This document shows, one piece after another, positions 21,131-40,931 of a stretch of 64,000 bases of DNA. Source of the stretch: Sarea resinae (lineage: Eukaryota). Below the pieces are notes generated by a model. The model was not told the origin of the DNA. It made no database searches and saw only the letters and a list, made by a program, of their open reading frames with translations. Position numbers and translations under genes: made by a program. The stretch is taken from the NCBI GenBank assembly GCA_026026165.1, contig JAPEUD010000013.1, forward strand, positions 1 to 64,000, written 5' to 3'. The stretch's first letter is position 1, and each line of letters begins with the position of its first letter.

Positions 21131-21790
21131 CATCTTGCTTGATGGGCTGAAGGCTTGAACTTGCTCCTTTGGGTTCCTCACTAAGCAGCAGCGCCAGCCA
21201 ATGACATGGAGTACGTACGCTTGATCCGACAAAGCTGAAACATATTCAGTGTGTAATTATCGGTCAACTACTTCATGTGACTAAGGTAGGTGCGAGAATA
21301 GAAACATCTTGGTCATTGCACGGTGCATGTCACACATATATAGGGAAGCAGAAGATATTTCGTTTCAATGTAGTAGCTGTTTATTCGCGCTTTATTTCCT
21401 TATCCTCGTCGGTATCACGCTCGATCTTGACATACAGCGGGCCTTTCTGGGGCGGGTCTTGCTGGGGTTCCTGCTGGGGTGCCTGCTGGGGTGCTTGCTG
21501 GGGGCGGCGCCGGGGCTGGCGATTCCTTTGATTATGACTCTAGTTCTGTCTATCAGCATTCGATTTACTCAAGCCTTGTGTAGGTGTCAGAAACTCACCG
21601 ATGCGAAGAAACGTACATCTGCAGCGGGGACCATTGTAACGGCGTACTCTGTTGGACATCCTGCGGCCTTGTGGCCAGTCCGACCGCAACTCCAGCACTG
21701 GAGTTTCTTCTATAAACCATTGTTAGCAAATTTCATCAACGATAGCAATTAGTTCAAGATGTGTGCTGCAGGTGTCAGAAACTCGCCTTA
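21131..21790 (-). pseudogene. Degenerate copy of the CCHC zinc-knuckle / PQQA-repeat gene plus its 3' flank
   Basis: The 111-nt exon 21599-21709 encodes [37 protein letters not shown]. After a GTGAGT...GCTGAT..CAG intron, the next exon opens AAC TAG, versus AAC CAG in the 24.3 kb copy. The flank 21131-21343 duplicates 23489-23706. Confidence 0.7.
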
Positions 21791-22024
21791 GCAAAGTAAC
21801 ATTTGCTAGAACTAGTGCGACTAGATAAGTAGTCTAGCATTTGCTAGACCTGCGTTGACTGCAGCTACACAGCCAGCATCTGAGATATTCTAAATTCATT
21901 AGAAGAAGCCGCAGTAATCCTAGCAATACACTCTTCTATTAGAGCTTTTGCTAGCAAGTAGAGTATATAGCACAGGGGCTCAGATAGAAGCAGAAACAAT
22001 TTAAATCCAAGCTACCTCTCTATA

Positions 22025-22560
22025 CTATCTCCTTGTCATCGTCATTCTCTCTAAAACACAAAGGTTACAGGTGTGCTTGTTAGGGTGCTTGTCGGGGTAC
22101 TTGCGGGGTTGCTGGCCAGGGTGCTTGTTGGGGTGCTTGCTAGGGGTCTGGCTGGGGGCGACGCTGGGGCAGGCGATTCCGTTGATTATGACTCTAGTTC
22201 TGTCTATCAGCATTCGATCTACTTGAATCTCGTGCAGGTGTCAGAAAACTTACCGCCGAAAAAAATCGTATCTCTCTTGCCGGTATTAACGCTACGGCAT
22301 ACTCGGTACGACACTCGCCGGCCCGGTGGCCGTCCTCCCGCAGGTCCAGCATTGGATACTTTTCTATACAATTGTTAGCATTTTCATCAACGATTGGGAT
22401 TAGTTCAAGATGTGAGCTGCAAGTGTGAGAAGCTTACGTTCAAGTTCATTAACTGGTTCTTTAGAACTATTGCCACCGGAAATATGGTCCGGCAATCCGA
22501 TTGTCTATGGCCCTTCTAGCCGCTAACCCAGCATGTGGTATTCTTCTATAGCCATTGTTA
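22025..22560 (-). pseudogene. Degenerate copy with two tandem CCHC exon modules and an eroded PQQA exon
   Basis: Exon 22254-22363 is 110 nt and frameshifted (CWTCGRT.GHRAGEC). Exon 22438-22545 reads KNTTCWVSG*KGHRQSDC. Both are flanked by homologous introns. Confidence 0.7.
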
Positions 22561-23777
22561 GCATATCTGTGTCAACTGTCTGCAATATTTGAAGCCGAGC
22601 TTTCTAGTATTCTGGGGGACATCTCCTTTAAGATCTTGTCATATACCAGGCACCGTTCTGTGAGGCTCGAAAGCTCTCTAAACTCCACTCAGCCTGCCAG
22701 TAGTAATGTGCTAGTGACACAATAATGGATTAGCGTGAAGCCGCTCGCGATTTCGTCCTGCCTGAGGACCATTATAAAACTATTCCCAGACACCATGCCT
22801 TGATGTAGATGTCTTCGAGCTGCTCAGGAAAAGGCTCGCGCCGCCCGAACATCCCACCAAGTACGATGTGTTTTAAGTGACTTCAGAAGTTCATTATCTC
22901 CGGCCATATTGTGAGGAGCACTGCGCTATATAGTCGACAAATAATGTAGGCATAAACCGGACGAGCCGGGTTATAGTAGTCTTTTTAGATGGCGCACGTA
23001 GGAACAGATTTGCCGATTTACTAGACCCTTACACATATTCACCACCATCTTCACTACCATCTTCACCACCATCTTCACCACGCCTGTCATGACTGTACCG
23101 CTCGCTGAGAGCTGACTCATAGACTGAGCAATAAGTCTGACAGCCATCATCTCTATCAGCATCTGTTGCTCCATTTGCTTAATTAGCTTTGCCTTCCTAT
23201 TCACCGTAGTGCAAGATTGTAGGTAGGATTACTTTGCCTTCTTATGCTCAAGCGTCTGGTTGAAGACAGTAAGGTACTCTCTTCCATGACGTTTGGCATA
23301 ATATCACCGCCTCCATCAACGATTTTAGATCAAGAGTATTTCCTTGATGTGCCATGGAAGAGTAAACCCCCTCAGGGCGAGCTACTTTACCCTGCTCGCC
23401 GAAGATGTTGGATCAAAGAAGGCCGGCCTCGATATACGATAGTACAAGACTCCCTGGAAGAAAGAAATTGGGCGCGAAGTGACAGGCCCATCTTGCCTGA
23501 TCGGCTAAAAGCTTGAATTTGCTCCTTTGAGTCCCTCACTAAGCAGTAGCGCCAGTCAATGACATGCAGTACGTAAGGTACGCTTCATTCGATAAAGCTG
23601 AAACATATTCAGTGTGCAATTATCGGTCAACTACTTCATATGACTAAGGTTGGTGCGAGAATATAAATATTTTGGTCATTGCACGGTGCATGTCACGCAT
23701 GTATAGCATGATTCAGATCGAAGTAGGAGCAGTTTGCGATTTAAGCTACGAACTCAAGTATCTCCTCGTCATTCAAC

Positions 23778-24511
23778 TTATAACTGTACCATCTCCTCAT
23801 CCTCATCGAAGCACAACTCTTGCGGGGGTGCTTGCTGGGGTGCGGGTGGGGGTGCTTGCCGTGGTGCAGGTGGGGGTGCTTGCCGTGGTGCGGGTCTGAG
23901 TACTCGCGGCGTTGCGGGTCGGGGTGCTTGCCGGGGTGCTTGCTGGGGTGCTTGCTGGGGTGCTTGCTGGGGTGCTCGCTGGGGTGCTTGCTGGGGTGCT
24001 TGCTGGGGTGCTTGCTGGGGTGCTCGCTGGGGTGCTCGCTGGGGTGCTTGCTGGGGTGCTTGCTGGGGTGCTCGCTGGGGTGCTTGCTGGGGTGCTCGCT
24101 GGGGTGCTTGCTGGGGTGCTTGCTGGGGTGCTTGCTGGGGTGCTCGCTGGGGTGCTTGCTGGGGGTCTTGCTGGGGTGCTCGCTGGGGTGCTTGCTGGGG
24201 TGCTTGCGGGGCAGCTTGCTGGGGGTCTTGGGGTGCTTGCTGGGCAGCTTGCTGGGGGTCTTGGGGTGCTTGCTGGGCAGCTTGCTGGGGGTCTTGGGGT
24301 GCTCGCTGGGGGCGGCGCCGGGGCATCCGATTTCGTTGACTCTGGTTCTGTCTATCAGCATTCGATTTACTCAAGCCTTGTGTAGGTGTCAGAAACTCAC
24401 CGACAATACGAAACGTATGTCTGCGGCAGGGACCATAGTAACTGCGTACTCAGTACGACACAAGCCCGCCCGGTGTCCCATTCGCCCACATGTCCAACAC
24501 CGAAGGTTTCT
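23778..24511 (-). CDS. Apparently intact CCHC zinc-knuckle exon spliced to a Pro/Gln/Ala-repeat exon; 5' exon(s) uncertain (possibly within 24555-24986)
   Basis: Exon 24401-24511 encodes [38 protein letters not shown] phase-0 intron follows, then [26 protein letters not shown]...(PQQA)n...[13 protein letters not shown]. Confidence 0.55.
23820..24312. repeat. 12-bp minisatellite GGGGTGCT(T/C)GCT, roughly 40 units
   Basis: Direct reading. The unit has no stop codon in any frame, which explains the overlapping repeat ORFs in the track. Confidence 0.95.
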
Positions 24512-25133
24512 CTACAAAGAATTATTAGCATTTTCATCGACGAGTGGGATTAGCTCAAGGGTGTAGAGTATTAGTGTAGGTCTGCACGATCGAAAGCCTT
24601 TCGACTAAGAGCGAGATGATCGGCAAGGTTGGGGAGGAGTTTGCGAGGGAATTGGAGGTCAAAGACGTGAAAGAATGGTCACTAGACGACTGGACCACGT
24701 CTGAGACGGTCCAAGTGATCTGTTTCAATTCGATTGTCTTCTTTGGGTCAAGAATTCTGGGGGTTCCGAGAGGCAATGGGGAAGGGAAATGTTGTGTGGC
24801 CAGCCAGGCTGGATAGTCTAGTTGCCGGACCAGACCATTCGGTCGATCCAAGGCATTAGACATTCGCATAGCCATGAATGCTGGTTCACCAGGAGTAAAA
24901 GGCATGGGGGAAAGAAGGGCTATGAGGGAAGAAGGACTATGAGAGAAGAAGGGCTCTGAGGGAAAAAAGAAAACGAATCGGAGCATACGTTGTTCTTCGG
25001 CATGGTCGCGGAAGAGGTGAATGTTGAGGAGAGAGACGAAAGAGATTCAGAATTGGGGGGAAGGCTCTTTTATATTACTACCTATTCTCGCTACAAGCTC
25101 CACCTCTCAGCCAGGACCTACCTCACACAACGG

Positions 25134-26087: not shown

Positions 26088-26160
26088 CGCCTTGCTGGGG
26101 TGCTTGCTTGCTGGGGTGCTTGCTGGGGTGCTTGCTGGGGTGCTTGCTTGCTGGGGCGGT
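26088..26160. repeat. Short orphan array of the same 12-bp GGGGTGCTTGCT minisatellite
   Basis: cttgctggggtgcttgcttgctggggtgcttgctggggtgcttgctggggtg. Confidence 0.8.
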
Positions 26161-28688: not shown

Positions 28689-30881
28689 ATGTCGACGGAG
28701 ATGTTCCACGTCTTCGGAGATCTCGAATTTGCCGTCAAAGATGTCACGGACAAGAAATCGCTAAGGAAATTGAGAGAGTTTGCTCCATTCCTTGAACGTC
28801 TTGAGCAGTCTGACCTCGAAGAACAGGAAGCGTCGTATGACTATCGAACACAGCCAGCGTTGTTCGACTATCGAACTTCGTTCGATGAATTCCAGAAGGC
28901 CGAAGTTGCAACATGGCCGGAAGGCTCACGATACGAGAAGTTCGAGCAAGAATTGGTCCGCCCTTCGGGGAATATCGATGCAAGGATTTCAAATCATTTG
29001 CACTATCCTAGCTTCACGACCAAACATCGATATGATGGAGAAATTGCAGACGATACAAATTGCTGCATTCGGCTTGTGCTGAAGAAAGGCTTTAACATCG
29101 GCAATTCGTTCATGTTCAATACCTTCTCAAGACGAGAAGGAAGAGACAAGCTCAAGGACTATAGCCGAGAGACAGAGGACGTCCACCGCGGCTGGTCCAA
29201 TCGTCTCCATCGTGCAATGACAGCGAAGGTCGAGATCGTCTGGGGCGCAGCTAGTCGTCAGTGGATGGAAGAGAATCTCGATCTCGTCCAGTTGAAACTC
29301 TTCGGCCCTTGGAAAGGGGTGACTCTACATCTGGAGCGAAGCCCAGCGAATGAAAACATTGAGAGAATCATCGTTTTCGTTCATCATCCAGAGTATTTCC
29401 TCCATCAGTATGATGCCGGGATCGCTCGCCGCCAGGATCGCGCTCTGAACGCCGCCGCGGCGCTTGCTGGGGTACGTGTCGATGAGAATTTCTTCGAGCG
29501 ACGGGCAAAGTTCCTTGAACGGCCTTTCGACCAAATAATAGAAGACGAAGACGATGAGAATGAGGGCGAGGTGAGCAAATGCCTATAGCTGAAGTCGGCG
29601 ACTTCTCTTGCCATACTAACGAACTTTTAGCTTCGCTCACCCTCTGCAAGAAAGCTTCACTTTGTCCTCATGGACCTCCTTGAGGCTGAAGCGGAAAACG
29701 AAGGGTTCCAATATGATTGGTTGCCCTACAGAGTCACGAGTTGGCTCTCCGACTCATACGATATAACCGACCAAGACGGCCTCCATAAGAAGTGGAAAAG
29801 TATATTCGGTGATGGTGAAGACAGTGAGTCGGAGCCGGGTACTGATATGGCTGAGCTTGAAGCATCCGAGTCTAGCTTAGTTGGAAAGATCTTCAGTCTC
29901 TACGGACGAAAGGGCGGAATGGCACAGCTTCGAGGAAGGTCTAGGGACGAACACGGAAATGTATTCTCCGTGATGGATCCCTACGTCATTCCCTATCCTA
30001 ATAGGACCATGGAGCGAAAATGCCACCGATGTGGTCGGGGGATGGAAGCGGATACGTATGTCCGCTACGGGAAAACGCATCCGACATACTACGTCGCTCA
30101 TGGGCATAAGGGATGCCACAATAGGAGCTGCGAAGGGAGGAGATGCTGGGCCATTCCAGTGGATGATTCCATCCCATGGCAGGCAGGCCAGCTTGATATG
30201 CTGCAGCTGGAAAACCCAACCGATCGAGGGAAAATCCCCGAGTATGCAAAGCATATCGCAAATGGCTCGACCTTTGGGAAACCTGACGTCGTTCCTGTTC
30301 GATGCATTGGCTGTGGAACCATCGGAGCGAACGACGAAGAGGCGGCATACACTCGAGAGCCACCTCATGTGTATCACGCAAGGGATAGAACTTGTCCAGC
30401 TTGTAAGAAGCAGTTGACATTTGTGCCAACAGACGGAGGAGATTACGTCACAAGAAAGGGGTTGTGGTCATGGGAGCATAACAAAGAAATGCCGCTTGAC
30501 AAATATACGACCTCCCAAGGCAGCAAGTCCAATCCACCCGCAAAGAGAAGTGGATTTGAGCACTGGATTGCGAGCGGTGAAGAGTTTGGCCTGCCAACTG
30601 CGGTGCAGCTGAAGTGCTCTGTATGTGGGACAACGGGCAAGGTAAATAAGAAAGCTAAGTATCTGAAAGAAGTCCCTCATCTCTACCATGCAGGGCCTAG
30701 AATTTGTGACACTTGTGGGAAGGCCAGAAGGCTTTTTGTGCCAGCTGACGATCAGGGATACGTCGACTCAGACACTTTGATGAAATGGGACCGAGAAGTC
30801 AAGAAGTCGAGTACAAAGACAGACGCCGCAGAGAATATCGTGCAAAAGGACCAGCAAAGCCGCAAAAGAAGGAGGAACTAG
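28689..30881 (+). CDS. UDG-superfamily-like domain + acidic linker + three Cys4 zinc-ribbon repeats (710 aa), 2 exons; paralog A
   Basis: ORFs 28689..29588 and 29670..30881 join in frame through intron 29571-29630 (GTGAGC...ACTAAC...TAG). The protein is clearly paralogous to 38234..40042. Motif order GNIDAR-LHYP / FMFNTFSRRE / KVEIVWG / VHHPEYF matches the UDG fold. Confidence 0.8.
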
Positions 30882-30917
30882 ACATAGGAGAGCAAGTTGG
30901 CGTGGCGTCTCCTATGC

Positions 30918-31081
30918 TACGCTTCGGCGTGGCCTATACTGAGGTACGCTTCGGCGTGGCCTATACTGAGGTACGCTTCGGCGTGGCCTATGCTGAGGTA
31001 CGCTTCGGCGTGGCCTATTGCTCTGGTACGCTTCGGCGTGGCCTCATTGACCTCTCGGCTTGCCGGGATCTCGAGGAAGCT
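30918..31081 (+). repeat. Array of five TACGCTTCGGCGTGGCCT hairpin repeats (9-10 nt linkers) plus conserved tail
   Basis: Five exact 18-mers at 30918-31044, starting 37 nt after the stop codon, followed by CATTGACCTCTCGGCTTGCCGGGATCTCGAGGAAGCT. Confidence 0.95.
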
Positions 31082-32639
31082 TAGTAGAGGAAGCGTTTAT
31101 TCAGTATTGTAGCCAGCAAGTAGAGTATGTTGAAATATCCGGCTGTATGTCCGTCGATTTCTCTACCCTACTAACAGCTGTTATACAGTACTTTTATAAA
31201 GCTTGATATGAGGCAATTGAGCATGAAGCTCTACTGCATAGAATAGGAGAAATAAACAATCGTACTGAGGGGAGAAACGGCTGAATATCCCTGACCGTAT
31301 TGCCTACTCCGGTTTAGTCACATGATCGGGCTGGATCTGTTAATTCCGACAGGATAGGCCAGATATAAGATACAAGGTGCAAAACACTTCGCGATGTATT
31401 GTCCTGAGTGAAGAATGCTTAGAGCGGTGTCATAGTCCGTGCAAGGCGTTTAGCTAGTAGTCCAGTGTAGAGTGATCCGCAGGGGCGAGTGAGGGGAGGG
31501 TGTTTGCGCAGTCTACTCAACGTTGGGTAAACCTGCTACGTCTTGTCAAGAGGGTAGTAAAGAGAAGGTCTTCATCTATAGTATCAGGGGCAGGGAATAG
31601 GGCGTGCGAAATCCGACAACCGTTTTTGTTTGTCGTGTGGGTTGGACTGCGCTTGTGGTGTCAGCGTCGACAGCATCAGCTCCCCCGCCTCTTTCCCTTC
31701 AGCCTTAGAGTCAGTCTCTGGCTTAGTCTCCGACTCGGCAGTAGACGACTCAAGCATATTTCGACCAAATACAGACACTATCTCCGTTTCTTGCTCTATA
31801 GACCTGGTCCTATTGTTTCTGTTTCTGTTTACGGCAAATAGAGCGGGCCAGATCACGACTCTGATCTCCTAGCTGCAGATCTGGACTTTGTGGCCCCTGT
31901 AGGCTGGCGGCGCTGCGCCCCAGGCTTGCGTTAAGAGCTTGGTAGATATAAAGAGGGCCCAGTCGAGTTGCGTCATGGAGGGTGAGGTGAAACTATAACA
32001 GAGACTAACTTTTCGTTGAAGCTTTTGTAATATAAGATCTTATTTGCTTCCTGATCTACCTAGCTCTTTCGCTCCTCCTTTGCGGAGCCGCAGCCGCGAT
32101 CCACGAATGCAATTCGGCAGATGCCGAAGGGAGAAACTGTGAAATTCTCAGTTATCTCCGCATAGGTTTACCGTCTTGTTAGCTAGGTTTCAGTCCTTAT
32201 ATAGATACCCATATAGATAAAGACTCTACCTTCTAAATGTCACTTGAGAGCTAAGAGGCTCCAGCCACTTTTATTGACGACAGATTTCACGTCAGCCATT
32301 CCTCGAAGATGAAATAGAAAGGGCAACACGAAGCGCTGCAAATGTCTCGTAGGACTCCTTTGACAAGACAACAGAAATGGAGCTTAATTCCTTGGATTTG
32401 AGTTAACTGAGACTCTAACATAGCGCTTATAAAGCTCCTGAGTTCTTCTAGCTCAGGATATATCGATGAAGTTGTCGCCTCGACCTGCATTCTTGCAGTG
32501 CCTCCCTGAAAACGAGGAGGCATGAATCCATTTAGGAGCTTTGCAAGAGGACTTACGACACTCTGGTCTGCAATTTGCGTCTTATCTTGATCAGAATCTT
32601 CTCGGAATCGATGGAGAATGCGAGTCAAACTCCCCTCTG

Positions 32640-33250
32640 CGAATCCGGCCTGGAAGCAGGCTGCTGGCGGCCTTGCTGGCGGAGGTAGTGGTCCTGGTTC
32701 TGTCTATCAGCATTTGCTTTACTCGAACCTCCTTCAGGTGTCAGAAAACTTACTTCTGCAAATTGCCGGATTTGATTTGCAGGTACGAGGAAAACCTCAT
32801 ATCTGGTGCGGCAGTTGCTCTACCATGACACACAGCTCCCCTGGCTAGGCGTGGCCTTGCTAGATACAGCCTTGCTGGGCCAGGTCCTGCTAGGGGCCAT
32901 GCTAGGGGGGCCAGAGGCTAGCCGGGAAAAAATGATCGGCAGGGACGTTCCTAGGGCCGGTAGCGGGGGCGTTCTAGGGGTTGGCGGCGGGGGCGTTCTC
33001 GGGGAGGCGAGGGCGAGTGGGGAGGTAAAGTTGCGGGTTCTAGTTCTGTCTATCAGCACGCACTTGACTTGAAACCCATAGATGTAAACTGCAGGTGTCA
33101 GAAAATTTACGGCGACAAAGTGACTCATCTCGTTAGCGGGAACTAGAGTCACAGGATATTGGGTCTGACATTGCCCTGCCCGGTGCCCAGTCCTTCCGCA
33201 CGTCCAACAGCGTATGTTCTTCTATAAACCATTGTTAGCATATTCTTTCG
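32640..33250 (-). pseudogene. Heavily mutated copy of the CCHC-module gene (two modules)
   Basis: Exon 33111-33221 encodes KNIRCWTCGRTGHRAGQCQTQYPVTLVPANEMSHFVA. A second module ending CRTRYEVFLVPANQIRQFAE lies at ~32754-32840. The same GTAA..TTCTGACACCTG intron starts are present, and there are many CAG->TAG stops. Confidence 0.7.
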
Positions 33251-35001
33251 CGACTGCATACTTTCAAGTAATATTAAGAACTTAGACAAAGAGTAAATCC
33301 TTCTTCGCACATACAGAAATTCCAAGTGAAGAAGGCTACTGCTAGAAAAACATACATTTGATCGAGCTATCTTTGTAGATACGAAAGGGAGGTAACTGAA
33401 AAATTAAGTCCTCTGAGTATAGATTTACTAGCTAGTTAGTTCTTAATCCCTTAATCTTTCTACTTACCTATAGTCTCTATGTACAAAATGAGTCCGCGGA
33501 AGTTTAGCTACTTGGTGTACTAAATCTCTTTAGCCTAGTATTACTTTGGCATCTCGAATATTAGTTTTAATCATTATTTGCGGTTAAAGGAATTAGATCC
33601 AAAGGATTAGGAGCTCTCTTTAAGGACAAGTGTGAATCATTGGTGCCTTTGCCTATATTGCTATTTTCATAGAGAGGCATTATACTTTTTATAATAGTGC
33701 TAGCTTTTTCTTCATCTTCGGTGTCGGATATTTCAATGATAACGCAAGGAGAGGCTCTTATAGAAGAACTAGTAAAGTGTCCTTTATACTTGCATGAATC
33801 TATACTACAGTCGGCATACCTAAGCTTTAGAGCTCGAGGTAGTAGAGACAAGGTATATATGATTTTTTACTTTGGATAAAAGTAAAATAGAGATCCTCTA
33901 TGTATATAATCAGCATTAGGTCGGCTTTTAATAACTTATTGATGCTCGAGTCCTTATTGTAGGCGCCTCGGTGTAACCTGTGAGCATTTCGAAATTAATA
34001 CCCTGCACGAAGGGGCTAGGAGTGATGAGAAGAAGAAGTTTCGAGAATCAGAGCTGACAAGAGGATTTGCGCAGTAATAGATAGCCGTTGAAGTAGGTGT
34101 TGGAGTGGGTGGGGAGCGGGGCTGTGAATGAACGATGAATGAATGTAGGCTGCGCGATAGCAGGAACTCAACTAAGGGTGAATGAAAGTAAGTTTATGCA
34201 AAGACCCCTCTAGATATCATGTAGCCACAGAGGAAGACAAAGGGCCTAGTGCATCTTGCTTTACTTTTCCTTTGATTCTCTTTCCTCTTCGAATAAAGGG
34301 AATTTAGTTCGTACTGTGTCGTAGAGTTAGCGCGACTTCAGAAAAAAAATAACAAGTTTAGCACGTACTATATCCGCGATTATATAGAGGCTGTTCGAAA
34401 CGTAAAGTTTAAGGCAAGGCTCGAAACTGAACAGCAGCTTGTAGCATCTGCATTTACGCCCGAGTCTTTGGCTTTCCGGTGTTATTCCTCCGAAGTCTGC
34501 ATTTCAATATATCCCCGATCGCAGCTGGCTCAAATAGCCTTTTGAACTTACCACAAGTGCCCCAACTTCTAGCTCCTGTATCATAGAGATAGGCGGATCT
34601 ATTATATATTTTATTTCCTTACCTACATTGCATGTTGTCCGATAGACAAAGAACTTCAGTTGTATTATATTTCGCAGTATAATGGATGCGTTTTCCAGTA
34701 GTAGACATAGATATTATTTTCTATTCCACGGCCACATCGGTGGAATTTCGCTTCATTCTTCTATAGAGGTGACAAAAGATATAGAGATTCTTTCAATGGT
34801 ATCCTGTGCTAGGCTCCGTTCCAGATGAAGTATCACACCCTCTGAGGGCTGAAGAGTTTAGAAACCAGGCCAGCGGTCCGAATAGGCTGAAGAGTTTGGT
34901 CTGATATGCCAAGCCTTTCTTGTGAGGCGTCCCTATATGCATATCTTCCTATAAAGGAGCATGCAAGGGGAAAATTCGAGCAGATTAGGAAGGCCTAATT
35001 C

Positions 35002-35091
35002 TCGATGGTCCAAATAGTCCAGGGGTTTAAAACCACCAAGCGGCCTGATCTAAGAATCTTGGACCGACTATTTAGACCATCGACAGCCCTG
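35002..35091. mobile_element. Degenerate copy of the hAT-type MITE (left TIR disrupted)
   Basis: TCGATGGTCCAAATAGTCC...GACTATTTAGACCATCGACAGCCCTG. Confidence 0.65.
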
Positions 35092-35504
35092 GATTCGATA
35101 GTGAGAAAGATATTCTTGAAGAATCAAAAGCTGACGGGCAGGGTTTGCGAGTTTAGATATACGCGATAGTTGGAAGGGAGCGGATTGAAAGGTGAATAAA
35201 AGTACGTTGCGAGATAGTAGATGGTTGACTGAAGGCGAATGCAAATAGGCTTATGCAAAATGAACGTGAATGCAAAAAGGAAAAAGGACGTATCATCTTA
35301 CTATCAGAGCGAGAGCCTCGATACTACTATCTTATCATAATGATCTCTCCGCTTCGGTCGCCCAACGATTCGGATAAGCTTAACGGCTATCCATACCTTA
35401 GGCGACATCCGCGTTGGTACGTACTCTTCTCACCACCAAAAAAATCTGCCCCCTTATATCAGGGGGCCACCCATCCTTCAACGAAAAAAAAGAATGGTGG
35501 ATGA

Positions 35505-35589
35505 AGGTCCTGCCCGGGATCGAACCGGGATTATTAGGAGTCAGATGCGGTTATCAGAACCTAATGTGCTTCCATTACACCACAGAACC
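35505..35589 (-). tRNA. tRNA-Gln(CTG) with a 14-nt intron (35540-35553)
   Basis: The reverse complement reads GGTTCTG-TGGTGTAATGGAAGCAC-A-TTAGG-TTCTGA-[intron]-T-CCTAA-TAAT-CCCGG-TTCGATC-CCGGG-CAGGACC-T and all stems pair. An oligo-T Pol III terminator lies at ~35484-35491. Confidence 0.93.
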
Positions 35590-36484
35590 CTTTCTTGTTG
35601 AAAGAGAACATTTGAAAGAATATGTGAAGCACACGGCGTGTCCCAGATCCTGAAAAATGTGTCGCATAATGCTTCCGTCGAGTCACCTCCAGTCACGCAG
35701 TCAGAATTCGCGCGAAGCGGGAGAATGCACATTGCGACTAATCTTAAATAGGAAACTCGATGCTGAGCTCCTAGGTACCGCAGTAGTAGGTAGGATATCT
35801 TGCTAAATCACTGAGGCTTGAGAACACGACTCGTGACACAAAGCTGCTCATAGTCTGCCATGAGTTCTGTTCTCAAGCATCGTTCGAGCGCCACCAGATT
35901 GGATACAAATTACCGAATCTTTTGCACTTCTCCTGAACAGTCTCCTTTTTAGGAGACACAATTCGCACACTTCTCTCGCTGCTGCAAAATAGTAGGTCTA
36001 TTGCGTTTTTAAGCTATGAAGGCCTACGTCCTAGTGGAATAAGAAATGCCACAAATACGAAAGAAAGAATGAATGCGAATACGCCCCAAGAAAGTTTGCC
36101 GATTACAGCTGAATATTCGCCCCTGTTCGCACACCCACAATCCTTACCGGGCTTGGGTGGGAAGCGAAGTCAATCAAGGGGATTGGAAAAAGTGCCCGTA
36201 GGGGGGCTCTTTTTTCGGGGTCAGATCTGCGACAGCCTTCAATGGTAATCAGGAAAGTACTCGAGTAGAGTCAATTCCTGTATGCTTGCTGGATTCACCT
36301 AATTCGTATTCACTCCACAAGGAAGTGATTTGGAACATGGAATCCCAGGCTGTGCGGATTGAATGATAATTCCTGTCATACTCTTGGGGAAATCGTGGTC
36401 TACTGAGATGTTTTCCGTACAAGTGGTTCGTCTTCGTTGAATCACAAGCAATCCATCTCCGCCTGCTTCGCCTTCTGATATGAG

Positions 36485-36620
36485 CAGCTGGAGGGCTGTC
36501 GATGGTCCAAATGGTCGGTCCGAAACCCTTGAACCAACCCACCAGGTGGTCCAAAACCTCTGGACCTCCGGACCTCCAGACCATTTGGACCACTGGTCCG
36601 GTGGACCATCGACAGCCCTG
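36485..36620. mobile_element. 136-bp hAT-type MITE with perfect 8-bp TSD
   Basis: GGGCTGTCGATGGTCCA ... TGGACCATCGACAGCCCTG with internal GGTCC/GGACC repeats. GATATGAG occurs at 36477-36484 and 36621-36628. The left TIR carries a ~6-nt insertion. Confidence 0.85.
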
Positions 36621-38233
36621 GATATGAGGGCAGACGCCTACACATAGTACTCGCTGCTTACTTGAAGGCCCTAAAAACGCGTTCGACGACGTTCCAATGC
36701 ACCGTGGCAACACTCGAACTGAATCAAGACATCACTCATCAGTGATTTAGCTGGAAATACTTACCTCTGAGTATTCCCCTCAATCATTCAGGATTATATC
36801 TAATCTAGCTCTCTACTGCAATAGGAGTCGATCGACAACCGCCTTGATTATATCGATCTGAGCCACCAGAAACGCTTTCGCAGCGCAACTTTACTACTTT
36901 GGCTAGAGGCTAGTATGGCCTTTGAACACCTTCGAAGAGCGGCTAGCCCTTCAACGAATGTACCGCCAACCTTTTTGGAGGCATAGGGAAACCTACGACA
37001 AGTGACCGTTCCTTTTTGATATATCCAACACCTTGTTCCACATCACACTTATAGTCCTAGCCACAGCGTTGTCGCTACGCTCTCGTACTCATGTTACCTT
37101 CCATCCTGCTCTAATATCTCGTTCCGTGCCGTGGTGTTCATGGTGACTGCATTACTAAGAGGTCAGTTTCGCCTGTTTAAGAATTGTTTCCGAGGATAAT
37201 GTGGTGCACCGCTCCTGATGCGCTACGTAAACCACCATATGGGGCGTCATCTGGCAGGAGTCGCCAGAGTTTCAACAGCATGTCCTGCGGTGGATGTACT
37301 ACGAGTAGTCTAGAGTCGAAGTCGATATCATTTGCGAAAGTGCGGAGTCCCAAATGCTCTCACACACTACAGTATATCGAAGTGGAAGTCTAGGCGCTGT
37401 CATTTAGCTTCAGTTGGTGTTGAGGTGAGACAATTAATCTAGACGACTTGAACGGACAGAACGTCCAAGAAAAGAATCAAGATGGTGCTGTGGTTCTGGC
37501 AGTGCAAGGCATCTGGAATCGGGGCAATGCTTCGCTTTTTGAACGAACTCAGGCGTCTACGTCTTTAGCAGCATTGCCTTTCTGTTTGAATTGAGCAGGT
37601 CCTTCCCTTCATGTTTATGGCACTGCAAGAGTTGTCAAACCCGTCTGGCTAGCGCTTGAAGCTTTGAGGCTTGATGGTTCTCGATTTCAGCAATGACGCT
37701 CAATGGTCTTGACCACAGATTGGAAAGAGACTCCCGCGGTGGGGGAGGCGGATCGTCTGGGCGGGCGTGTAATGGCACAGGGGATGATTCATGCAGCATA
37801 ATGCTTCGAATGGACCTTCTCTACCAATATGCATTCGTATGAAGAGTGTCGTGACCGTGGCCACTGCCGCACTCGTCCGGGGTAGTGTCAGCATGTCTCC
37901 CTTGACACTCGTCTCTCGTCTCTCATGTTCGTTTTTTCCCTCGCAGACCACACAACAACGGCTTTGATCCATCGATTCCACCCAAGAAGAATCAGACTTA
38001 CTACTGATTCCATCTAGTAACAACCAAGAAACTTCAGGTTTCCAAGGTATTCATACTTTCCACGTCAAAATGTCCAAAATGGTCCCATTCTCAGCAACTC
38101 TTGAAATGCAGAACATTCTCGTCATATCCCCATCATCTCTATCTCAGAGAAGCCGTTGTAAGTCCAGAACCCGTCTGCTGATTGTCATATCAGCCTCTAC
38201 AGTTAATCGTATACCTGCAGGTAACGATTGAAC

Positions 38234-40042
38234 ATGTCTGCCAACACTTATCATGTGTTTGGTGATCTCGAGATCCCGCTCGAGCAAATTGATACCGTTG
38301 CTTTGGAGAAGCTAAAGAGAAGTGCCCCGCTCCTCCGGAAATTAGAAGGGGCTGACAAGAAGAAAAGGCCACTGTTCAACTATCAGAGTGCTTTCAAAAG
38401 CTGGAAGATACGAGAAGTGGCAACATGGCCAGAAGCACAGCGATATGATCGCTTCGAAGATGAGCTCGTTGGACCCTCAGGTCCCCTCGACGCAGCCATA
38501 GCGAGTCATCTACACTACCCGAGCTTCACGACCAAGCAGCGGTACAATAGCGAGATTGCAGATTCAACAAACTGCTGCATCCGTCTCGTCCTCGAGAAAG
38601 GGTTCACATCGAAGGACTCTTTCATGTTCAACACCTTTCAAAGAAGGGAGAAGAGGAATGGACTGAAGCGCTACACCGAGGCGTCAAAGGACGCTCATTA
38701 CGGGTGGTCGAACTTGCTCCGAAGGGAGATGCACGCCAAAGTCGAAGTCGTCTACGGCAAGGCAAACCGTGAGAGGATCGAGAAGACCTCGCGCTTGACG
38801 CCAATCGAGTTGTGCGGCAGCTGGGAAGGCGTCACAATCCACCTAGAGCTCGCTGTAGCGAACCCTTTGACGCCTCTCAGAATCATCGTCTTCGTGCACC
38901 ACCCCGAGCACTTCTACCACAACTGGGATACAGAAACTGCTCGCGTACAGGACCTGAAACTGAACGCTGCGGCCAGGCTTGCTGGAGTCGCGGTTGACGA
39001 AAGCTTCTACGAGAAGCGGGCGAGGTGGTATTCGGAATCTTACAATCCTTTGATGGATGAGGAAGAGACCCGTGAGGAAGACGTGGAGGATGATGCACCT
39101 CCCGTCCACGCATCATCAAACGATGCGGACGAACGGCCAGCGAAGCGGCAAAAGGTGAGCGAAAGACATTCCTATTTAGAAGGATCGTGGCTGATCTAAT
39201 GATATCAGCTGCTTAGAAAGCGCGGAACTGGAGATCTCATCCAGTTCACCAAGGGAATGTTAGCTCTCGAGAAGGCGGGTTCCATTTTCGAGTTCTCGGA
39301 CCTGCCAATCAAAGTGACGACCTGGCTCGATTTTGAGCACGACGTGGGCAGTCTAGAGGATCTTCAGGCGAAGTACAGAAGTATATTCGAGGATCAAGAA
39401 GAAGGCTCCACAGAGAAGGCCCCTGAACTTGGCCTAATGGGCCGGATCCACCGGCTCGTTTCGAGAAAAGGGGGGATGGGCGGCATCCGTGGAAGAACTA
39501 GAGATGACGTAGGCAACCTCATCTCTGTGTTGGACAAGTATGTTATTCATCGTCCTGGTGAAACGATGAAGCGAAAGTGTGGCAATTGCGGCCGAAATAT
39601 TGAAGACGATACGTACGTGCGGTACTGGAAGACGCATCCAACGTACTATGTAGCCCACGGCTTTAAAGGATGCCATTCCAAGGAATGCGAGGGGCACAGA
39701 CAGTGGGCAATTCCCGTGGACGGCTCAATACCATGGGAAGCTGGACAGGAGGACGCGTTGAAAGGCGCCCAACCTGTCGACAGGAAAAAGATCGCTGGCT
39801 ACAAAAGCCAGGTAGAAAGTGGCGAGACCCTTGGACTACCTACCACAGTCAAAGTGAAATGCAACACTTGTGGTAAGGAGGGCAAAGATGATGTCAAAGC
39901 AGAGTACGACAAACATGAGCCTCACTACTATCTTGCAATGCGGCGGACATGCGCAGCGTGCAAGAAGAGGATAACATTCCTGCCAGCAGACGGCCAGCAG
40001 TACGTGACAACCAAGATTCTATGGGATCGGATGCAGGAGTGA
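38234..40042 (+). CDS. UDG-superfamily-like domain + two Cys4 zinc-ribbon repeats (584 aa), 2 exons; paralog B
   Basis: ORFs join in frame through intron 39155-39208 (GTGAGC...CAG), the same phase as in paralog A. Shared motifs include HVFGDLE, EVATWPE, HLHYPSFTTK, TNCCIRLVL, IIVFVHHPE and KTHPTYYVAHG. Confidence 0.8.
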
Positions 40043-40122
40043 GAAGCCAAGAAGAGCGAGAAAGATCAGAAGAACTAGTTCTGTCGGTCAGTATAAGTCT
40101 CGTTTGTTTACAAATGGGAGGA

Positions 40123-40324
40123 CGCGCTTCGGCGTGGCCTATTACTGAGGTACGCTTCGGCGTGGCCTACTAATGCTGAGGTACGCTTCGGCGTGGCCTA
40201 TTGCTCTGGTACGCTTCGGCGTGGCCTACTAATGCTGAGGTACGCTTCGGCGTGGCCTATTGCTCTGGTACGCTTCGGCGTGGCCTCATTGACATCTCGG
40301 CTTGCCTGGGATCTCGAGGATGCT
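40123..40324 (+). repeat. Array of six (T)ACGCTTCGGCGTGGCCT hairpin repeats plus conserved tail
   Basis: Six units at 40123-40286 with linkers ATTACTGAGG / ACTAATGCTGAGG / ATTGCTCTGG, followed by CATTGACATCTCGGCTTGCCTGGGATCTCGAGGATGCT. Confidence 0.95.
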
Positions 40325-40931
40325 CTATAATGAACCATCACCGAATGTTGAAAGATTTTCGTGGCTCTCAGCCTCAGCCGCAGCTGCGTTGCGCAAGGTA
40401 AAGGAACAAATTACGATCAATTGCCATTGCTATCGAGCTATCAGTTCATCGTCATTCTGGCTCCTGCTGCTCCCCTGCTTGTTCGCTCCTATCAATGGCT
40501 GCGGCTGCGGCTACAATCTTATTGCCCGATGTATTTTATATAGTAATAGTATGGAAATAGAATCGCAACCAGAAAGCAATTATAATCCTCTCTACTTCTT
40601 ATATTTCGACAAAGGCTGAAGAAACCACAGGCTAATGTAACTTCGTATTCCGAGTAGAGCACGGCGGTGATGAGTGTAGCATTAAAAGAAGTTCTACGTG
40701 TCCGCAATCCGAACAGCTAATAAGAGCCCAAGGTGCTCAAAGACAGTACGGAGTACTACATAAATATCCGAGCTCCGTGTTCGAGAACTGCGGCGCTCCA
40801 GGCGGGCCCGCGAAACCTCTCGGCAAACGCCGTGCGACTGCACATCACCAACGAAACTTTCGAAATGTCGAAGAATATTTGATTTCTGCAGCAGACCAGA
40901 ATCGGTCATTTTCCTTGGTCAATCTGAAGTC

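Follow-up and report, generated by a model that had tools for sequence, protein, structure and literature searches.

Arrays of hairpins in 3′UTRs that recruit RNA-binding proteins are known as a general class. The locus described here, in a window of 64,000 nucleotides of the Sarea resinae contig JAPEUD010000013.1, resembles them in its short putative stem-loops, which are repeated in sense orientation past a stop codon, and differs in that no known element was matched (Rfam, E<1). It also resembles the concerted evolution of arrays between paralogs, with non-coding repeats near-identical beside diverged genes, sharp borders, expansions proper to each locus and degenerate units at the edges. 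However, at about 190 nt the tract here is very short, and it is limited to the 3′ flank of two coding paralogs, the coding DNA is saturated, and the shared tract includes a unique tail. On the protein side, the closest described systems are the family-4 uracil-DNA glycosylases (UDGa) and UdgX. We compared the locus with all of these, and we tentatively favour the reading that the cassette, i.e. array plus tail, is a 3′UTR hairpin array kept alike by gene conversion between the paralogs, with a constrained core. The features are as follows.

28689..30881, + strand: gene 1 (M1819_001180), exons 28689-29570 and 29631-30881, intron 29571-29630, 710 aa
28851..29477, + strand: coding region in gene 1 of the domain with the UDG-superfamily fold (residues 55-263), from the AF2 model, Foldseek and VIA
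30012..30794, + strand: zinc-ribbon region of gene 1 with three CxxC...CxxC modules, from a BLASTP internal repeat, conserved cysteines and AF2
30898..31044, + strand: array 1, a degenerate unit and then five exact 18-mer cores with spacers of 9-10 nt
31045..31081, + strand: tail 1, unique 37 nt, common to tail 2
34421..34859, - strand: third gene copy, decayed and internally deleted (pseudogene fragments), from tblastn and blastn, 74-76% nucleotide identity
38234..40042, + strand: gene 2 (M1819_001182), exons 38234-39154 and 39209-40042, intron 39155-39208, 584 aa
about 38363-38992, + strand: predicted UDG-like domain of gene 2, by alignment to gene 1
about 39569-40024, + strand: two zinc ribbons of gene 2, by alignment to gene 1
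40123..40286, + strand: array 2, six cores (the first with two mismatches), spacers of 10 or 13 nt and a higher-order period of 59 nt
40287..40324, + strand: tail 2, 38 nt

Each gene has a single GT..AG intron at an equivalent aligned position, and splicing reproduced the deposited proteins P0001 (710 aa, gene 1) and P0002 (584 aa, gene 2) with every letter matching. The two proteins are identical at 148 of 285 positions (52%) in exon 1 and at 133 of 264 (50%) in exon 2, in agreement with the first-pass annotation, where about half of the residues had been judged to differ. Over 559 aligned codons the nucleotide identity is 55.8% and falls to 37% at third positions; synonymous divergence is saturated (pS 0.84), with pN at 0.33. 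BLASTN of the gene 1 region against the gene 2 region (word size 7) returned coding blocks (66-72% identity), fragments of MITE-like elements and the cassette, and no further alignment of the upstream or downstream flanks or the introns. The earlier remark that the upstream regions are not alignable thus holds, with the MITE-like fragments as the only matches outside the coding sequence and the cassette. The genes are ancient DNA-level duplicates of one fungal protein, probably nuclear, in which a divergent uracil-DNA-glycosylase-superfamily domain is joined to two or three zinc ribbons.

Both intact paralogs carry the cassette on the same strand and in the same place downstream of the stop codon. 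With up to three mismatches allowed, the 18-mer TACGCTTCGGCGTGGCCT occurs 11 times in the window, always on the + strand and always within the two arrays, whereas 0.05 are expected by chance and 11 were reached in none of 100 shuffles. Five of the matches are exact copies in array 1 (30918-31044), and array 2 has five exact copies and one with two mismatches (40123-40286), which corresponds to the five and six identical units counted originally except for that variant. The units of array 1 follow one another at 27, 27, 27 and 28 nt; in array 2 the spacing is 28, 31, 28, 31 and 28 nt. As units of 28 and 31 nt break the reading frame, array 2 is not a conserved coding repeat. Downstream of gene 1, a degenerate unit (about 30898-30917) starts 17 nt past the stop and the first exact unit 36 nt past it; downstream of gene 2, the first unit begins 80 nt past the TGA. 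Both arrays therefore start within 100 nt of their genes (17-80 nt), as had been noticed. The cassettes end 200 nt past the stop of gene 1 and 282 nt past that of gene 2, and 200-282 nt is a usual length for fungal 3′UTRs.

The near-identical tail of about 37 nt reported at first sight was also recovered: the two tails (37 and 38 nt) are one substitution and one 1-nt indel apart. These are the only differences in the final 92/93 nt of the two cassettes, which are about 98% identical, and the similarity stops within a few bases past GGATCTCGAGGA. Set against the pS of 0.84, this bears out the claim of far stronger conservation in the cassette than in the gene. Recent expansions are in addition specific to each array, of 27-nt units in array 1 and of a double unit of 59 nt (97%) in array 2, which shows that turnover is ongoing.

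The search for further copies of the cassette in the genome used the contigs of the sole sequencing run containing this DNA, with eight of the 11 cassette-bearing contig pieces listed. All four loose ends of the cassette contigs equal flanks or spacers of array 2. The depths of these contigs were 720, 998, 560 and 399, compared with 363-375 in unique flanks, which corresponds to about 2.0, 2.7, 1.5 and 1.1 copies; with no array besides these two, 2, 3, 2 and 1 would be expected. Since flanks and depths fit two loci alone, the cassette is no dispersed MITE or minisatellite, and this candidate was rejected on the eight of 11 pieces listed. The first-pass annotation had tied the cassette to the gene family and had named its occurrence away from the family as the observation that would speak against this; in the genome as sampled, loose ends and depths keep the two together. 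Within the window, there is no other copy at up to three mismatches or at the purine/pyrimidine-degenerate level. Two short metagenome contigs from distant relatives carry no array.

Each unit can be drawn as an 8-bp interrupted hairpin with a C(UUCG)G tetraloop as its cap. The predicted folding energy is -10 kcal/mol for the standard units and -11.5 kcal/mol for the variant core, both changes of which preserve pairing. Compared with shuffled sequences, the stability is unremarkable, with z-scores of -1.5 to -2.1 for the units, -0.6 to -0.9 for the tails and -2.0 to -2.7 for whole arrays. Ten of the 11 cores are exact, whereas the nine spacers come in five forms. By a hand count of few events, the chance of seeing no core change in about six mutational events is 0.003, or 0.014-0.04 when the edge unit is counted. 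Recombination junctions located inside the cores could yield the same pattern. The covariance models of Rfam 15 found nothing at E<1 between 27000 and 41500 except a tRNA, and for array 1 alone the best matches had E values of only 4.5-7.3.

Regarding the proteins, several lines of modelling support the uracil-DNA-glycosylase superfamily fold of the N-terminal domain proposed earlier. The AF2 model of this domain of gene 1 shows an alpha/beta UDG fold with a pLDDT of 94. Foldseek matched 38 PDB structures at E<=1e-3; the 38 top-ranking entries listed are of the UDG family, among them the family-4 UDG 4zby (E 2.2e-7). VIA aligned 174/190 residues to 1vk2 with a Z-score of 15.6 and an rmsd of 2.8; 4zby reached 15.5 and the UdgX entries 13.2-14.1, overall at an rmsd of about 2.8-3.0 with 170-177 residues aligned and the target covered almost completely. 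In contrast to family 4 and UdgX, the gene 1 domain shares only 11-16% sequence identity with them, carries a hairpin and a long helix as N-terminal additions in the AF2 model and is fused to zinc ribbons. SMUG1 (Z 9.4-9.9) and TDG/MUG (TDG Z about 9) have the same fold with lower VIA scores, and DUF1643 gave a sub-threshold match to gene 1 (E 0.17); all three score clearly below family 4/UdgX, and no membership is seen at the sequence level. Neither gene matched Pfam PF03167 at the gathering score. None of 52 family members reached the cut-off of a Pfam UDG family, and three of the 52 gave sub-threshold matches (best E 0.018).

The consensus of the family contains HLHxPSF after strand 1 and a nearly invariant H233-P234 after the last core strand. 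Motif B ('HPS') of family-4 UDGs and UdgX would sit where this His-Pro occurs. Family-4 UDGs bind a 4Fe-4S cluster by four cysteines. Among the 52 N-terminal domains no cysteine column, as a candidate for such a ligand, is conserved at 90% or more, and C126 is the only cysteine of the domain invariant among close relatives. The protein family is unnamed and absent from Pfam; it comprises 344 cluster representatives, and all members with an organism name belong to Pezizomycotina. A scan of genomes from 185,579 prokaryote species returned no member, so that the family was found only in fungi, and the 20 of 344 members that were looked up are all annotated merely as hypothetical proteins. It is an unstudied branch of the UDG superfamily and a protein family worth an activity assay by itself, since UdgX, which forms crosslinks with uracil-DNA, is among its nearest relatives in structure.

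The zinc ribbons of the initial description fit the conserved CxxC pairs: C425/C428 and C456/C461 are invariant in eight homologs, and further pairs are invariant in the four closest. In the AF2 model the modules of gene 1 are beta-rich, with a pLDDT of about 88-96 for the first two and 78-92 for the third. Pfam DZR, Zn_Ribbon_1 and similar families scored only below their cut-offs. For the ribbon region, modelled as several domains together, Foldseek found no match at E<=1e-3, and the best VIA match was weak (Z 3.6, a ribosomal zinc-ribbon protein).

Saturated genes next to a near-identical cassette imply that the cassette is either much younger than the genes or constrained at every base, and at the level of sequence an exchange between the loci would be the simplest cause of this contrast in age. 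The cassette lies in the 3′ flank of both genes, most likely inside the 3′UTR, where it could act as a cis-acting RNA element and place both paralogs under one post-transcriptional control, possibly of mRNA stability, 3′-end formation or localisation via a factor that binds hairpins. The arrays are 9 kb apart, and ectopic gene conversion from one to the other would account for their near-identity; each array would also lengthen or shorten locally through unequal exchange or slippage. Transcription of the cassette, selection on the hairpin core and homogenisation by conversion are inferences, as is any function. The ordinary z-scores of the hairpins, the third copy, which has no cassette, and the lack of a matching Rfam family count against a 3′UTR element. 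As for the first interpretation as a whole, we keep the UDG fold, the zinc ribbons, the conservation of the cassette and its link to the gene, and we part from it on mobility, on a neighbourhood rich in C->T changes and on a role against RIP. If functional, the cassette would be a compact and easily tested fungal 3′UTR element with 18-nt hairpin cores in variable number.

The main rival to a 3′UTR element, less probable in our judgement and yet to be taken seriously, is a functionless minisatellite in the 3′ flank which was copied recently between the paralogs or is recurrently converted. Hairpin-forming arrays are prone to recombination; near-identity, sharp borders and locus-specific expansions fit concerted evolution without selection, the hairpin stability is not exceptional, and further duplicated genes rich in tandem repeats are present in the same island. 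Nevertheless, such a minisatellite must persist or re-form at the same site and strand while introns, promoters and synonymous sites are randomised, conversion is hard to start in a locus without prior homology, and the variation is confined to the spacers, with none in the interior cores. If neutral, the cassette would still be a clean natural case in which gene conversion affects only about 190 nt next to saturated paralogs, and it would help to estimate, for a filamentous ascomycete, how short a tract can be and how often ectopic conversion takes place. It is rather improbable that the association is a true two-part module, in which members of the family in Pezizomycotina carry their own C(UUCG)G array just past the stop codon, which the protein would recognise in the form of RNA or of DNA, extruded or single-stranded, and which selection and not conversion alone would keep identical. 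Such a unit would recognise itself, e.g. for autoregulation, for cis-preferential action or for marking its own locus or transcript in genome defence. We give slightly less credit to the array as a binding platform (for autoregulation or as a cis-acting site) for the zinc ribbons or the UDG-like domain of its own protein, which is the two-part module proposed in the first-pass annotation. Within the sampled genome the cassette goes with this gene family exclusively, tandem ribbons could plausibly bind nucleic acids, as could a base-flipping fold, and the numbers of ribbons (three and two) and of units both vary; however, the ribbon modules match no solved nucleic-acid-binding domain, and duplication of a gene with its 3′UTR would equally give the same association.

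The neighbourhood bears on two further proposals of the first-pass annotation. The three gene copies lie inside 12 kb, in an island (21-40 kb) between housekeeping genes, and no cassette stands beside the third, decayed copy, either as an 18-mer at up to three mismatches or as a purine/pyrimidine-degenerate unit. A MITE-like palindrome is found upstream of all three copies, 674 and 1613 bp from the ATGs of the intact genes and about 140 bp from the decayed 5′-truncated fragment. Subterminal tandem repeats occur in several transposon superfamilies, and together with the palindromes and the clustering of three copies, one of them decayed, they could suggest a mobile element that carries the gene and has the cassette at its subterminal end, or else a small mobile cassette inserted twice. 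We consider this very unlikely, as the sequencing run contains just two copies, there is no matching 5′ terminus, second upstream boundary, inverted tail or inverted unit, and no target-site duplication was seen; moreover, the MITE-like elements stand at very unequal distances from the genes, the saturated divergence is unlike that of recently active copies, and we know of no transposase with a UDG fold.

Least credible of all is a unit, selfish or defensive, whose excision of uracil would work against RIP as a deamination-based genome defence. It would agree with the UDG-superfamily fold, with the bias of the decayed copy towards G>A and C>T changes (31 against 11 in the reverse direction among 77 substitutions) and with the mildly raised RIP indices at 32-35 kb. 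However, no Pfam UDG match of this putative glycosylase reaches its cut-off, nothing ties the cassette to deamination, and 18-49 kb is not RIP-like outside about 31-35 kb, where the signal is clearest at 32-35 kb. RIP is indicated by TpA/ApT above 0.89 and (CpA+TpG)/(ApC+GpT) below 1.03. In 2-kb windows over 18-49 kb, the first index exceeded its threshold in two stretches, with values of 0.92-1.0 at 21-24 kb and of 0.94-1.12 in the windows between 30-32 kb and 33-35 kb inclusive; outside about 31-35 kb it ranged over 0.46-0.94, bar 1.0 in one window at 21-23 kb. The second index was at least 1.07 in every window and so never in the RIP range. Instead of a neighbourhood riddled with C->T changes, as had been stated, there is a mild RIP-like signature only at about 32-35 kb, around the decayed third copy, and the indices of gene 1 and gene 2 (0.56-0.65 and 1.2-1.3) are far off the thresholds. 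The island also contains other duplicated genes that are rich in tandem repeats.

The two paralogs that combine a UDG-fold domain with zinc ribbons (gene 1 and gene 2) lie in fungal DNA, and the database entries for their products, P0001 and P0002, are the hypothetical proteins M1819_001180 and M1819_001182 from a MAG of Sarea resinae, a species classified in Pezizomycotina, class Sareomycetes. Each gene has a single GT..AG intron at an equal aligned position, and each is followed by a cassette composed of an array of 18-mer cores and a short tail.

Exons 28689-29570 and 29631-30881, + strand: gene 1, 710 aa, splice product identical to P0001
30898-31044 and 31045-31081, + strand: array 1 and tail 1
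Exons 38234-39154 and 39209-40042, + strand: gene 2, 584 aa, splice product identical to P0002
40123-40286 and 40287-40324, + strand: array 2 and tail 2

The first-pass annotation had estimated by eye that roughly half of the residues differ between the two proteins, and the alignment agrees with this, as identity is 52 % (148/285) in exon 1 and 50 % (133/264) in exon 2. The third zinc-ribbon module of gene 1 is missing from gene 2. Across the 559 codons aligned, pS is saturated at 0.84, pN is 0.33 and 37 % of third positions are identical; the introns gave no alignment when compared. Because of this divergence, the genes are taken as old duplicates that arose at the DNA level, each under purifying selection. 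Gene 2 ends in TGA; an in-frame TAG follows 11 codons later in the context AACTAG, as at the gene 1 stop (40040-40077), and the stretch between the two codons encodes a basic tail similar to the end of the gene 1 product. This suggests that the TGA is a recent premature stop, which trimmed 11 residues.

The N-terminal domain matched no Pfam family above the cut-off, and a profile search of the PDB returned no UDG match (best E 0.87, to an unrelated chain). Residues 1-294 of the gene 1 product were modelled using an alignment of 52 family members (pLDDT 94, pTM 0.91). UDG-family entries filled the top 38 ranks listed by Foldseek, the best being the family-4 UDG 4zby (E 2.2e-7), and VIA-align gave Z 15.6 against 1vk2 (rmsd 2.8, 174 aligned residues), 13.2-14.1 for UdgX entries, 9.4-9.9 for SMUG1 and about 9 for TDG. 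The structural matches span model residues 55-263, and the predicted model thus bears out the UDG fold proposed earlier. The ESM Atlas, used for leads only, yielded hits scoring 0.81-0.83 and, on structure, a cluster of type-4 UDGs. The family consensus contains HLHxPSF past strand 1 and, past the last core strand, a His-Pro pair that hardly varies, positions which we take to be UDG motifs A and B. Family-4 UDGs bind an Fe-S cluster, whereas no cysteine column of the 52-member alignment is conserved enough for one. The C-terminal half is predicted to form separate beta-rich CxxC...CxxC modules (pLDDT ~88-96 for the first two, 78-92 for the third). Their cysteines are conserved in homologues, in keeping with the zinc ribbons claimed previously, but no significant structural match supports that assignment: the fold search gave nothing at E<=1e-3, and the best match of a wide search had Z 3.6.

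Relatives of the N-terminal domain are numerous. HMMER searches of 1.84 billion cluster representatives recovered 344 at E<=1e-3, 172 at E<=1e-10 and 8 at E<=1e-30. An organism name was attached to nine of the 20 clusters looked up (Sarea, Xylona, Aulographum, Pyrenochaeta, two from Aspergillus, Penicillium, Leptodophora/Leptodontidium and Phlyctema), all nine hypothetical or uncharacterised; the genera other than Sarea belong to Pezizomycotina as well. With exon 2 as the phmmer query, 24 of the 160 collected proteins matched. The Pfam scan of 56 family members found an N-terminal DUF3716 in three (P0064, P0072 and P0114) and no domain in the other 53. DUF3716 is reported from the genes of a transposon in Zymoseptoria (PMC8232023) and from an ortholog of a Neurospora telomere-sequence-binding protein (PMC10776026). 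No relative occurred among 39 pattern matches in prokaryote genomes. Searching metagenome contigs with a four-sequence alignment yielded two loci from 131 pattern matches; neither contig (2102 and 1804 nt) carries an array, and at 31 % and 29 % identity these loci are distant and uninformative for close relatives. We found no published description of the protein family or the cassette in a limited literature collection of main texts. The same collection yielded nothing on family 4 uracil-DNA glycosylase in Ascomycota and listed nothing relevant on fungal UDG-superfamily zinc-ribbon proteins or UUCG-hairpin tandem repeats in UTRs; on uracil-DNA glycosylase and repeat-induced point mutation (RIP) in Pezizomycotina it yielded one preprint, which mentions the term in its reference list alone. 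The proteins represent a branch of a known superfamily that is widespread in fungi and, as far as this collection shows, undescribed.

The 18-mer core TACGCTTCGGCGTGGCCT occurs in ten exact copies and one with two mismatches, against 0.05 expected by chance in the whole window, and all copies are in the two + strand arrays. Cores are spaced by 27, 27, 27 and 28 nt in array 1 and by 28, 31, 28, 31 and 28 nt in array 2. The former has a period of 27 nt (96 % identity) and the latter a higher-order period of 59 nt (97 % identity), and therefore the arrays expanded separately, each in its own way. Over the last two units plus tail (92/93 nt), the two cassettes are identical but for one substitution and a single 1-nt indel, and the similarity breaks off a few bases past GGATCTCGAGGA. 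Elsewhere, BLASTN with word size 7 aligned no non-coding sequence of one locus with the other except fragments of a MITE-like palindrome. The cassette sequence is either far younger than the genes or constrained at every base. Spacers take five forms among nine. A degenerate unit at the 5′ edge of array 1 is weakly supported, its score being equalled by 11-17 of 500 shuffles, and further degenerate units seen by eye in the tails and the array 2 left flank were rejected, as their local alignments were no better than shuffles (121-396/500).

A coding repeat, with readthrough or recoding, was also rejected. The gene's frame is open through the arrays only past two (gene 1) or three (gene 2) stops, an openness with an estimated chance of roughly 0.2, and the units of array 2 fall in three different reading frames.

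We estimated the copy number of the cassette from contigs of one DNA sequencing run, possibly of the source sample and the sole one among three runs of a single study to contain this stretch, placed on 30700-31300. Among the eight pieces listed out of 11, all four loose contig ends correspond to the array 2 left flank, spacers or right flank. Depth is 363-375 at the unique flanks and 720.6, 998, 560.4 and 398.6 in the repeat contigs, for which the two arrays by themselves would give 2, 3, 2 and 1 junction copies. These eight pieces give no sign of a third cassette locus, at the resolution of contigs that can miss rare variants. Elsewhere in the window the cassette is absent, also at the purine/pyrimidine level, where no RIP-degraded copy was found, and the 21-mer unit had no match in viral contigs. 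Within this scope the cassette belongs to the two intact paralogs alone, and the loose ends and depths fit the earlier expectation that it is restricted to this gene family in this genome and not dispersed.

As RNA, each unit is predicted to form an 8-bp interrupted stem with a C(UUCG)G cap (-10 kcal/mol). The stability is modest, at z between -1.5 and -2.1, and is equalled by 7-16 of 200 shuffles; whole arrays reach z -2.7 and -2.0, and the predicted folding of the tails is no better than that of shuffles. The single variant core keeps the predicted fold (-11.5 kcal/mol), both substitutions preserving pairing. The units are identical and so offer no covariation. No Rfam family matched the arrays.

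Both genes lie within an island of ~20 kb (21-40 kb) with housekeeping genes on either side.

One flank: Syf1, NDH2, Nipped-B/Scc2, a TFIIS-type zinc-ribbon protein and a HEAT-repeat protein
Other flank: Npa1, Eap1 and ESF1
34421-34859, − strand: decayed, internally deleted third gene copy in three fragments, 74-76 % nucleotide identity
27916-28015, 35002-35091 and 36492-36620: MITE-like palindromes (100-130 bp; terminal inverted repeat CAGGGCTGTCGATGGTCCA)
21400-21800, 22050-22450, 23700-24640, ~26090-26160 and 32600-33270, − strand: small CCHC-knuckle genes
35505-35589, − strand: tRNA gene, probably with an intron (Rfam 51.6 bits; anticodon not named by ARAGORN)

The 77 substitutions between the third copy and gene 1 include 31 G>A or C>T and 11 reverse changes, and only where the copy sits, at 32-35 kb, are the RIP indices mildly raised. 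The neighbourhood had been described as riddled with C->T changes, which holds mildly for this stretch and for no other. No cassette is detectable beside the third copy. The 18-mer terminal inverted repeat has five matches in the window against 0.07 expected, all within the island, and each of the three gene copies has one MITE-like element upstream, at unequal distances.

The likeness of the two cassettes would be most simply maintained by ectopic gene conversion from array to array, on top of which each array would undergo local unequal exchange. As to what is being maintained, we lean tentatively, at a little under an even chance, towards a putative functional 3′UTR element. We favour this over a neutral passenger because beside both genes the cassette has kept its place and strand although every other neutral site was randomised, because it reaches 200-282 nt beyond the stop codons, a 3′UTR-like extent, because variation is confined to the spacers (10 of 11 cores are exact; p ~0.003-0.04 by a count that rests on a handful of events), and because the sole variant core preserves pairing. 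The ordinary hairpin stability and the small number of events behind the core/spacer statistics weaken the functional reading. The main rival is a neutral converted minisatellite, which we consider less likely, given the retention at one position and strand beside both genes, the spacer-only variation and the pairing-preserving variant. In the first case the cassette would be a small cis-element that is new, and in the second a tidy example of concerted evolution over a very short tract.

Less probable still is a direct partnership of the protein and the array. That the cassette is the end of a mobile element, or was co-mobilised with the gene, is very improbable: nothing in the island marks a transposon, and the loci share no non-coding flanks other than the MITE-like fragments. 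We give the least credence to a selfish unit countering RIP.

Several minor features were observed around the cassettes. Directly past the gene 1 stop, at 30882-30920, a 9-bp inverted repeat (CATAGGAGA ... TCTCCTATG) surrounds the degenerate first unit of array 1, with a predicted RNA fold of -14.4 kcal/mol (z -2.65). At 30920-30962, the C(UUCG)G hairpin is followed a few bases on by UAUACU in the spacer ATACTGAGG, a form found in two of the nine spacers; this resembles the U6 snRNA 5′ stem-loop region. A cmscan search of the arrays found no U6. A short block, ATGTTGAAA[T/G]AT, was seen by eye at 31129-31140 and 40345-40356, 48 nt past tail 1 and 20 nt past tail 2, and could be a 3′-end signal or chance. 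The CCHC-knuckle genes form a duplicated family in which CxxCx4Hx4C is followed first by a conserved intron and then by 12-nt repeats (PQQA/PSKH-like) that make up the tail, one copy having ~40 repeat units (23819-24290); the ORFs tested had no match in Pfam. Positions 40075-40094 match the reverse complement of the 3′ end of their intron (branch site and CTAG) at 17 of 20 bases, which may be chance or the relic of a convergent CCHC-knuckle gene copy.
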